Shown: positions 57,001-60,000 of the stretch, in pieces
How the letters are laid out: every line of letters begins with the position of its first letter
Numbering within the stretch: the stretch's first letter is position 1
Assembly: GCF_003334385.1 (NCBI RefSeq)
Contig: NZ_QOWN01000001.1
DNA length: 64,000 nucleotides
Strand: one strand, 5' to 3'
Source: Escherichia coli
GTDB lineage: Bacteria; Pseudomonadota; Gammaproteobacteria; Enterobacterales; Enterobacteriaceae
Made by a program: the position numbers

Positions 57001-60000
57001 ACCCCAGGGTAATCACCTGGGGAAGGAACACAGTGTTATTATTGGATAATAAATTATTACTTGTTTTAAAGTTACACTAATGCAATATCTACTGATGCTG
57101 GATGCTTGAATGTTTTATCCCTGCTGCGGAAAAGGGCAATATCCAGGGCCAGATATATTCACCGTTCATATTTCTGCATTTCTGTACAATTTCCTCAGAA
57201 AGTGTCTTGTCAATTCTTTTCCACAGGTGCTCCTGCTGTCTTAAAATACTTTCGCATATTTCGAAATCATCTTCCTGAATCAGCATTTCGGCGCATTTAA
57301 TGATTTCTGATCGTTCATGCAGCACGGAGGAATGGTTATAGAGCCAGTTTACAAACAGCAATGCTTCCGAATATTGTCCCCATAATGGTGAGTATGTTGC
57401 ATAGTAATCTTCTGCCGTATCCAGAGAGCCGGAGAAGTCATGCCACACAGCAAGTGGAAATGGATGCAGATTTCCGCACAGCATTTCTGCGATGTAAGTG
57501 TTTGTGGCAAAGCCATGGCGAAAAGCTGTGGCGGCCTTAACATGTTCCCCGTTCAGAAAATGCAGGAGACCGAGTTCATACCAGTAAGGTGAAAATTCAT
57601 CAGCATGCTCTTTCAGTACACTGAAGGCTCGCTCATGATCGCCGGTGCGTAACAGCTCTGAACCCAACAACCAGCGAGCCCCCTGATTATCTTCAGGATT
57701 GTATGCCAGTATTTTATCAGTGAGCATAACCGCATCCTGATGGCGCTGTAAGTGCACATTTGCGAGAATTGCTGCATAAAGCGCGCGCAGATAAGGCCGG
57801 TTTTCGGGATGCATCCAGATTATTTCACCACAGAAACTTTCCGGGATGATACGATTACCTGCCGCCAGTCCTTTAAGAGCGGCGTTCAGTGCCTTACGCG
57901 GGGCATTCTGTTCCAGAAATGCATATGCCAGATGAGCGTGTATATCAATAAAGTCCGGCTCCCGTTGAGCAAGGCGTCGGAGTTTGTTGATGTAACTCGT
58001 CTCGCTGATTTCATCAGCGTCGTATGCATCAAGCACTTCTTCAAACTCCCCCAGCAATGGGCCAAACCAGGTATCCGGAAATACGAAATAACCCTTGTTA
58101 TCGTGCACTTCAAAGCATAATCTATCGTTCATTTTCTGAGCCTGTAAAACATGTGGTGATATAGTCTGAGAGCATAAAAGTTGAGATTCTGTGTATCAAG
58201 TCCTGTCTTGGCACCGAATGAATATTGCTTACGAAGCCCCTTCATGCTTTCCTTGAGAACAATAATTTTATCTTTATGTGAATCTCATTTTTTATAATGA
58301 TGTCAGATGATTGAAATGCTAAATTATATCTGAATCAACTTTTCCTTTGCTAAAGGTATCGAAATAACTACAAGGCTGTATTTTGTAATTGCCAATTTAA
58401 AAATGTCAATTTGTTTTTAATTATGTTTTTGTAATAAGTTTGAAGACGCAAAAAAATAATATAATAACAAAAATCCTCCAGCCTTGTAGGCCAGAGGATA
58501 AAATACTTAATTGAGGAAAACATCAGGGAAAAGTATTTCTGACTTAACTTTCCCGGCTGGAGAGTGAATCAATGTAATCAGCGTACCATTGCATCATTTC
58601 ACGGCGGCCATCGAGATACAGGGCATGATTATAGGTACCCCTGATGGAATTTTTATCCACATGAGCTAACTGCATTTCAATCCAGGCGGAGTTAAAGCCT
58701 TGTTCATGCAGAATTGTACTCATGGTGTGTCTGAAACCGTGCCCTGTGAGTCTTCCCTTATATCCAAGTAATTCAATTACTTGATTAATGCTTTCCTTAC
58801 TAATTGGTTTGCGGGGATCATTTCTACCGATAAAGACTAGGGGATGATGTTTTGAGATTGGTTCAAGCTGCTTAAATAGCATAATAACCTGCTCAGAGAG
58901 CGGCACAATATGAGGTCGCTTCATCTTCATTACTTCTGCCGGGATCTCCCACAATTTTGTCTCAAAATCGATATCTTCCCAGCGTGCAAAACGCAGTTCT
59001 TGTGTTCGTACGCCGGTTAACATAATGATCTGAGTAGCTGTCTTAGTGATTATACTTCCGGTATAACCCGCCAGATCGTTGAGGAAGTGGGGAAGTTCAT
59101 TAGCAGTAAGAAAGGGAAAATGTACTTTTTTCGGTGTAGCTAAAGCACTGGCAAGATCGGGGGCTGGGTTATAGTCTGCCCGGCCAGTAACAATTGCATA
59201 GCGGAACACCTCACCACAGCGCTGGCGGACCTTGCGCATTTTCTCCAGAGCTCCACGTTTTTCCATTTTACGCAGTGCTTCCAGTAACTCCATTGGTTTG
59301 ATTTCGGCAATAGGGCGCTTGCCAATGTAGGGAAAAATGTCTTTTTCAAAGGTATCAATGATTTCATCACGATAGCGTAATGACCACCGATCGGCTTTTG
59401 ACTGGTGCCATTCGCGAGCAATAGCCTCGAACGTATTTTTCAGACTTATTTGCTGCGCGATTTTTTCTTCCTTTTTTGCCTCCCCTGGATCGCCTCCAGC
59501 AGCGAGGAGTTTCCTGGCTTCACTGCGTTTCTCGCGAGCATCGGCTAGCGTTACATCGGGGTATACGCCAATAGAAAGCATCTTTTCTTTACCAGCAAAG
59601 CGGTACTTCATGCGCCAGTATTTAGAACCATTAGTGTTAATCAGTAGATACATACCGCCGCCATCAGCAAGCTTATAGGGTTTGTCTTTGGGTTTTGCGG
59701 TTTTCACTTTGATATCGGTTAATGTCATGACATCCTCCGGCTTTTGATGAATTCATGTTCCTGAGGGGGATTTCTGCCAGTAACTAACCTGATACCCCCA
59801 ATACACCCCTTGTATAACAAAGATGTTGTTAAAAGCCGTTGTTATGTATCACATTTTTCCTATTATGGGGGTGCTTGTATTTCAATAGGAAATAACACCC
59901 CCTAAAGTACCCCCAAAAGAAACTTGATACGGGGTGAAGTAGGTTGACCTCAGGATACAAATAAATACTGATATACAAGGGATTAGAAGAGATTTATTGA

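Follow-up and report, generated by a model that had tools for sequence, protein, structure and literature searches.

ShiA, encoded on the SHI-2 island of Shigella flexneri, and its relatives SisA and SisB of uropathogenic Escherichia coli (UPEC) CFT073 are the closest described counterparts of the gene considered here. The gene shiA was named in 1999, and later papers cite inflammation-attenuating phenotypes in vivo: loss of shiA, or of sisA together with sisB, raises early inflammation in animal models of infection with Shigella and UPEC. SisA is 83.3% and SisB 96.8% identical to ShiA, and the same paper equates SisA with the 1,044-bp gene that the Prokaryotic Genome Annotation Pipeline (PGAP) calls "tetratricopeptide repeat protein", whose neighbours encode Hes, an outer-membrane protein, and a phosphoethanolamine transferase (PMC13340028). 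Islands at selC have their first ~2.9 kb, shiA included, in common with SHI-2 (PMC6174562). We analysed a 64,000-nucleotide stretch of E. coli DNA (assembly GCF_003334385.1, contig NZ_QOWN01000001.1), referred to below as the window, in which a gene adjoining the P4-type integrase at selC had been described in an initial annotation as variable cargo of unknown function. Neither description held: judged by its sequence, the gene is shiA, and it is the cargo behind it that varies.

Identification of the integrase-proximal gene as shiA

The open reading frame (ORF) starts with ATG and comprises 347 codons (1,044 bp) on the minus strand. It is co-directional with, and lies 411 bp downstream of, a 394-amino-acid (aa) P4-type tyrosine integrase that matched NCBIfam PRK09692 (E 1e-94). 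The integrase abuts the tRNA-Sec gene (selC), with yicJ and yicI beyond. The 347-aa gene beside the P4-type integrase that the initial annotation had described was thus recovered as such. It is integrase-proximal and horizontally acquired, as that annotation had held.

This gene is the sisB-type allele of the ShiA/SisA/SisB family, and hence an already known, named gene; the identification follows from protein identity, ShiA-named matches, the gene order of SHI-2 and SE-PAI, published descriptions and a primer match. The window protein was 99% identical to an S. flexneri protein (P0001) over 100% of its length, the comparison being made with this protein rather than with the SHI-2 reference record AF141323, and the two have the same length. 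It also shares a 90% cluster with several S. flexneri and S. sonnei entries. The top structural matches in the AlphaFold database bear the UniProt names "ShiA homolog", "ShiA-like" and "SHI-2 pathogenicity island protein". The pheV-type homologue cluster (P0006) was 83% identical to the window protein and the selC-type cluster 99%, in agreement with the published SisA and SisB values (PMC13340028). The published forward primer for quantitative PCR (qPCR) of sisA matched exactly at 57891-57910. Its reverse partner had no match in the window within 3 mismatches, as expected if that primer recognises the 83%-identical sisA allele alone.

The order tRNA-Sec, int, shiA, phosphoethanolamine transferase, tia in the window is that of SE-PAI, LAA and SHI-2. 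Like its S. flexneri counterpart, the window copy directly follows the P4-type integrase of selC and has the same neighbours. The difference lies in the island as a whole, since the strain of the window copy is UPEC132-like and its island carries pap and tia, whereas SHI-2 is an aerobactin island; nothing structural differs. In UPEC132 the stretch from shiA to the integrase was 100% identical to the window, and the gene carries the PGAP label "tetratricopeptide repeat protein" between the integrase and the phosphoethanolamine transferase, tia and the pap-II operon.

Constancy of shiA beside integrases

With the coding sequence (CDS) alone as the query, 2543 of the 5426 complete genomes of E. 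coli (47%) had a shiA homologue, which covered at least 80% of shiA in 1983 of them; some genomes hold up to six copies. The initial annotation had asked whether homologues occupy the integrase-proximal slot of other islands, and for selC and pheV islands they do, most homologues in E. coli being neighbours of integrases of these two types. The selC-type unit of integrase end, spacer and shiA was present at a coverage of at least 80% in 471 genomes, and the pheV-type unit of integrase and sisA in 1365. The cargo behind the unit of int and shiA varies: the window has pap and tia, a derivative of E. coli B has genes for sugar utilisation, the AR_0055 pheV island has pap remnants riddled with insertion sequences (IS), and further islands have leoABC or other genes. 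shiA is among the most constant integrase-proximal genes of the selC and pheV islands. Carriage extends to the non-pathogenic E. coli B lineage.

The further question of whether the gene is a core component of all P4-type elements received a divided answer, as its high frequency falls short of universality. There are selC islands that do not have it: strain 135 retains the integrase and the spacer, with shiA lost to an insertion of IS1 at its place. Among 41 pheV islands studied, the integrase gene was the sole gene conserved in all (PMC11537424).

Three observations concern individual copies. In E. coli O157:H7 (G5295, L016 8001-8760), a degraded, unannotated shiA-like remnant, in two pieces at 72.5% identity, shares its island with iha and ter genes. 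Directly downstream of shiA or sisA, the B-type selC island (L002 9687-9917) and the AR_0055 pheV island (L003 9687-9917) both have a 231-bp ORF annotated as "hypothetical protein"; the window, with homology ending at ~57030, lacks it. A 3.5-kb contig assigned to a Collinsella metagenome-assembled genome (MAG; L018) encodes a protein 99% identical to ShiA of E. coli and Shigella, and is most likely mis-binned E. coli DNA.

Predicted structure of ShiA

ShiA has neither a signal peptide nor a hydrophobic segment, its pI is 5.2 and its net charge -21 (median pI 5.7 across 41 aligned relatives), features expected of a soluble, acidic, cytoplasmic protein. The initial annotation had proposed a single gene of helical-repeat character, similar to tetratricopeptide repeat (TPR) proteins. 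This character was faint in the sequence, with a Pfam ANAPC3 match at E 2e-4 and sub-threshold TPR matches, but clear in the AlphaFold2 model. The model, built on the 41 relatives, scored a predicted local distance difference test (pLDDT) of 92.9 and a predicted template modelling score (pTM) of 0.88. It places a β-hairpin at residues 6-17 of the N-terminus, followed by 17 helices in tandem helix-turn-helix repeats that form a TPR-like α-solenoid, as in the TPR superfamily.

The earlier failure to recognise a catalytic motif was borne out, as no catalytic family was found in Pfam, NCBIfam or PADLOC. Together with the confident all-α model, this indicates that the predicted fold is that of a protein-binding adaptor rather than of an enzyme. 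The invariant or near-invariant residues are N111, R112, P113, P146, D148, R205, N211 and Y213, and the family signature consists of [ED]NRP[FY]LR followed, at a fixed offset of 35 residues, by NPxDNxGxR. Searching the PDB with the single ShiA sequence gave weak TPR matches only, searching it with family profiles gave generic TPR proteins only, with Rqc1 not among the matches listed, and comparing the model with a viral structure library gave generic TPR proteins only, at template modelling (TM) scores below 0.45.

Three groups of proteins were considered as relatives and rejected. For the class II chaperones of type III secretion (SctY, LcrH/SycD), the SctY profile scored 27.6 bits against a cut-off of 70; no secretion genes were present among the annotated neighbours within ~12 kb of shiA. 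The RRNPP peptide receptors with a propeptide (Rap, including RapI of ICEBs1, PlcR and AimR) differ in that no helix-turn-helix (HTH) match was detected in ShiA, whose structural scores against them were no better than against generic TPR proteins. They differ also in that no conserved small gene for a propeptide follows shiA, the 231-bp ORF of some islands being present neither in the window nor in other species. The excisionase-like factors (Xis, Vis, AlpA, Hef, Rox) were set aside because ShiA has 347 aa, a pI of 5.2 and no detected DNA-binding domain.

The wider family on mobile elements

Full-length ShiA homologues at 35-99% identity occur in many bacteria, from which we conclude that the gene is real and under selection. 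Counted as clusters at 50% identity with E ≤ 1e-30, the family has ~199 clusters, mostly of stand-alone proteins of 325-355 aa. Its hosts are beta-, alpha- and gamma-proteobacteria, Verrucomicrobium, Acidobacteria and Balneolaceae, including bacteria of soil and water.

In six independent Tn3-family transposons a 340-aa ShiA homologue (49-56% identical) was located beside tnpA. The carriers are Morganella, K. pneumoniae pCAV1344-40, a Yersinia ruckeri plasmid, a Pseudomonas amygdali plasmid and two metagenome contigs. tnpR lies directly downstream of the homologue in five of the six elements, and in the one element where the junction was read (L078) an ATGA stop/start overlap leads from the homologue into a resolvase starting MMIGYARVSTQDQ. 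The other occupants described for this slot between tnpA and tnpR are toxin-antitoxin modules "integral to the transposition module" (PMC7157771). Like the modules described by Lima-Mendez et al. (2020), the ShiA homologues sit beside tnpA and upstream of tnpR, and presumably share the promoters of the recombination genes. Unlike them, each is a single 340-aa TPR-like protein rather than a two-gene pair and has no sequence relationship to them; a stabilising or establishment role would be suggested by analogy.

Other mobile contexts were also found. In Rubrivivax and the beta-proteobacterium AAP65 a large tyrosine recombinase has the homologue immediately downstream. In MOBH-type conjugative elements the homologue adjoins FlhDC/SetCD-like genes, a relaxase, a coupling protein and F-type transfer genes. 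Of the 74 plasmids, drawn from more than 10 genera, that carry a homologue, 44 are conjugative. Further neighbours include relaxases, an ISL3 transposase, Fic proteins, a PLD/DrmC-like gene and an AbiE toxin. No conserved operon partner or neighbour gene was found across 30 species-level loci, and outside Enterobacteria a tRNA gene was adjacent in only 1 of 34 loci. What is new here is the confident solenoid model, the wide occurrence of the family on mobile elements of environmental bacteria and the placement in Tn3-family transposons.

Several loci have unusual arrangements. The Aeromonas media plasmid pMC64A (L084 3296-8391) holds three diverged tandem paralogues of the family adjoining a Tn3-family transposase. 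In a Sphingobium MAG (L030 4024-7961) an ATPase with weak PtuA- and MAD3-type matches and a UvrD-like helicase, a Gabija-like pair, lie immediately upstream of the homologue and are co-directional with it. Beta-proteobacterial elements have a 382-aa gene after the homologue (L068 8179-9327, with a weak AAA_22 match; L021 7497-8645; L022 4810-5958); the stand-alone gene had no NCBIfam match. In P0126 an AAA_22-like N-terminal region is fused to a ShiA-like domain, and the 382-aa AAA_22-like gene is a possible functional partner of ShiA homologues. A subgroup of distant relatives, P0218, P0228, P0235, P0238, P0243 and P0244, have in common a conserved N-terminal domain of ~150 aa starting MPFVRRK(R/G)G, and P0243 additionally carries a C-terminal DUF7713; neither extra domain matches a family of known function.

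Resemblance to Rqc1 and TCF25

The Pfam Tcf25 profile (PF04910) matched 15 of 97 members of the wider family at E ≤ 0.001 and 31 at E ≤ 0.1 (best 3.2e-10), in an alignment whose every member matches the core ShiA profile at E ≤ 1e-36. In P0243 the match spans the region of the signature motif. The window protein itself had no match to Tcf25 at E ≤ 10, and among its close relatives none of 41 matched at E ≤ 0.001 and two at E ≤ 0.1. The modelled ShiA has the fold of the Rqc1 C-terminal domain, and the central domain of TCF25 has been described as a tetratricopeptide-like α-helical domain; the identity between ShiA and Rqc1/TCF25 is only 14%. The Rqc1 chain in 9OFV is in turn an AlphaFold model fitted into low-resolution density (PMC12215860). 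Rqc1 and TCF25, which act in ribosome quality control, bind ubiquitin and the RING domain of Ltn1, and impose K48 linkage (PMC12215860, PMC12047659). By comparison, ShiA is without the polybasic N-terminal region, and bacteria are without Ltn1 or ubiquitin. The ShiA family profile retrieved no eukaryotic TCF25, its distant relatives carrying the Pfam labels ST7 or SEC-C, and no connection between TCF25 and ShiA was found in the literature searched.

The relationship may go no deeper than common membership of the TPR superfamily, and we treat it as a lead. Its stronger form is that ShiA and SisA form a branch of the TCF25/Rqc1 fold that is bacterial and carried by mobile elements, and that, like TCF25, grips a ubiquitin-like β-grasp protein or a RING-like partner; this is a tentative idea to which we give a low probability.

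Proposed role of ShiA and alternative explanations

On balance, we favour the reading in which the sisB-type shiA of the window encodes an integrase-proximal, TPR-like adaptor with an intracellular role in the service of the element, and in which the effect on inflammation is indirect. The placement in Tn3 transposition modules, the adjacency to recombinases, the occurrence on MOBH elements and plasmids, the mobile- and defence-type neighbours and the non-pathogenic carriers all argue for an element-serving role, and the lack of a conserved operon partner across 30 species points to a conserved target in the bacterial host. The primary role of the family would then lie inside the bacterial cell, on behalf of the carrying mobile element. 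ShiA would most likely sequester or redirect a conserved host protein while the recombinase genes of the element are expressed, that is, during its establishment or maintenance, possibly with an anti-defence function. The anti-inflammatory phenotype would be a downstream consequence of this activity and not a direct action on the cells of the infected host.

Several points weigh against this proposal. The experimental data on the family, as cited in later papers, consist of host-inflammation phenotypes only. A position next to a recombinase could simply mark where insertions are tolerated, and a minority of homologues occur in ordinary-looking chromosomal contexts. The window protein matched no PADLOC family at E ≤ 1 and had no meaningful match in PHROGs, so neither a defence role nor a phage role is supported by these collections. 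Lastly, the promoter and terminator consensus matches listed in Table 1 are no more numerous than expected from shuffled sequence.

The likeliest of the alternatives is a direct action on the infected host, in which ShiA reaches host cells and an Rqc1/TCF25-like binding of ubiquitin or an E3 ligase damps inflammatory signalling. In its favour are the phenotypes cited for shiA and sisA/sisB, and the expression data, as sisA transcripts were detected in urine from 6 of 8 patients with urinary tract infection (UTI) and published transcriptomics of S. flexneri found shiA expression raised in anaerobiosis. The Tcf25 matches in 15 of the 97 family members and the known ligands of Rqc1 and TCF25 also speak for it, but those matches fade towards the window protein and its close relatives, the family profile does not lead back to eukaryotic TCF25, and the Rqc1 structure used for comparison is itself modelled. 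ShiA also lacks a signal peptide, and UPEC are not known to have a type III secretion system. Moreover, homologues are common in environmental bacteria that are not host-associated, in Tn3 transposons and in conjugative elements. We consider direct host action unlikely on this evidence.

An accessory factor of site-specific recombination would aid or regulate the integrase or resolvase in excision, integration or cointegrate resolution. Its appeal is that the family adjoins three types of recombinase, namely P4-type integrases, the large tyrosine recombinases of beta-proteobacteria and the serine resolvases of Tn3 elements, with overlapping genes in one of the latter. This very breadth is also its difficulty, because one conserved protein would hardly partner unrelated tyrosine and serine recombinases. 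Known recombination directionality factors are small (<~120 aa), basic DNA-binding proteins, which the longer, acidic ShiA with no detected DNA-binding domain does not resemble. Many homologues have no recombinase nearby and islands exist that have the integrase and lack shiA, all of which makes this explanation improbable.

We hold an anti-phage defence protein, or the sensor for one, in an integrase-proximal hotspot to be equally improbable. Besides the island-borne, integrase-proximal position, the argument for it draws on the homologue directly after the Gabija-like ATPase and UvrD-type helicase, on those near the PLD/DrmC-like gene, Fic proteins and AbiE-type toxin, on the three tandem paralogues of the Aeromonas plasmid and on the relatives fused to or followed by an AAA_22-like ATPase. 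Against these stand the missing PADLOC match, effector domain and conserved partner gene, and the fixed position in Tn3 transposition modules and conjugative transfer regions is better explained by element establishment.

The label of quinone reductase or NAD(P)H oxidoreductase, which originated in fold recognition in 1999 and is repeated in PMC6174562 and PMC7545054 with reference to Moss et al. (1999), is almost certainly wrong, as it is contradicted by the modelled fold, in which a two-stranded hairpin and helices take the place of any flavodoxin- or Rossmann-type sheet, and no nucleotide- or flavin-binding family was found in Pfam or NCBIfam.

The spacer and other features of the locus

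The features of the locus are collected in Table 1. The AT-rich region of about 400 bp that had been noted upstream of the gene measured 411 bp, with 31.1% G+C against 47.2% for the whole window, and only 0.4% of all 411-bp stretches are equally AT-rich. The initial annotation had taken this region as typical of H-NS-silenced cargo; published transcriptomics, as given above for shiA and sisA, show expression. The most AT-rich stretch of this length is at ~45039-45450 and has 26.5% G+C, below the shiA spacer.

An alignment of the spacer across alleles showed that the proximal ~100 bp before the ATG are conserved even in the pheV type, while the distal AT-rich part differs. The proximal promoter-like stretch ranks with the best-conserved spacer segments in selC- and pheV-type alleles (alignment A2), and the distal promoter-like site was seen only in the spacer type of the window and DL21. 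The hairpin behind the integrase is retained in other alleles with changes on both arms (ATCCTCTGGCC.../CTCCTCCGGCC...), and as a terminator it would uncouple the transcription of int from that of shiA. The hairpin after the integrase, the promoter-like sites in the spacer and the hairpin after shiA suggest that shiA may be a self-contained, monocistronic unit. A paper on transcription starts in S. flexneri M90T names shiA in its introduction and reference list only.

Homology to other selC islands of the DL21 type stops at ~57030, just short of the hairpin past shiA. The phosphoethanolamine transferase is split into two ORFs in the window by a stop in place of W350; it is intact in UPEC132, where it differs from the window by 60 substitutions over 1,503 bp. 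Set against the 100% identity of the stretch from shiA to the integrase, this divergence suggests a recombination boundary between the phosphoethanolamine transferase and shiA.

Table 1. Features of the selC island end in the window, with positions, strand and the basis of each assignment.
Feature	Position	Strand	Basis
shiA (sisB-type allele) CDS, 347 aa	57089..58132	-	ORF call, homology, AlphaFold2 model
P4-type tyrosine integrase of the selC island	58544..59728	-	ORF and NCBIfam
tRNA-Sec (selC), integration site of the island	60028..60122	-	ARAGORN
AT-rich spacer from integrase stop to shiA start, 411 bp, 31.1% G+C	58133..58543		Composition
Proximal sigma-70-like site TTGATA-17-TATGCT, ~40 bp upstream of the shiA ATG	58171..58199	-	Consensus scan, 9/12 matches
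Distal sigma-70-like site TTGACA-18-CAAAAT within the AT-rich spacer	58380..58409	-	Consensus scan, 10/12 matches
Intrinsic-terminator-like hairpin, 12-bp stem and T tract, just past the integrase stop	58473..58499	-	Consensus scan
Terminator-like hairpin, 67 bp past the shiA stop	57002..57022	-	Consensus scan
Phosphoethanolamine transferase ("sulfatase orf" of SE-PAI), usual neighbour of shiA, premature stop	55236..56738	+	Two ORFs in the window
tia, invasin outer-membrane protein of the Tia/Hek/Hes family, third gene of the recurrent shiA-orf-tia block	54306..55061	+	ORF and UPEC132 annotation

Implications

The genes shiA, sisA and sisB are scored as virulence markers in the genomics of UPEC, E. 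coli that make Shiga toxin (STEC) and Shigella, and no molecular mechanism for them was found in the literature searched. The unsupported label of quinone reductase can be replaced by a description that comprises carriage on mobile elements in non-pathogens, a predicted adaptor fold and a ubiquitin-binding quality-control factor as the nearest structural relative. This cautions against reading the presence of shiA as evidence of host-directed virulence. The remaining interest of the gene lies in its mechanism, and in the mobile-element and TCF25-like angles in particular. If the TCF25-like relationship is true, the bacterial targets could be ubiquitin-like conjugation or defence machinery, or the region of the ribosome exit, and the same surface might engage ubiquitin or an E3 ligase in the infected host, which would explain the anti-inflammatory phenotype. 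The "virulence factor" would in that case be a co-opted housekeeping protein of mobile elements.

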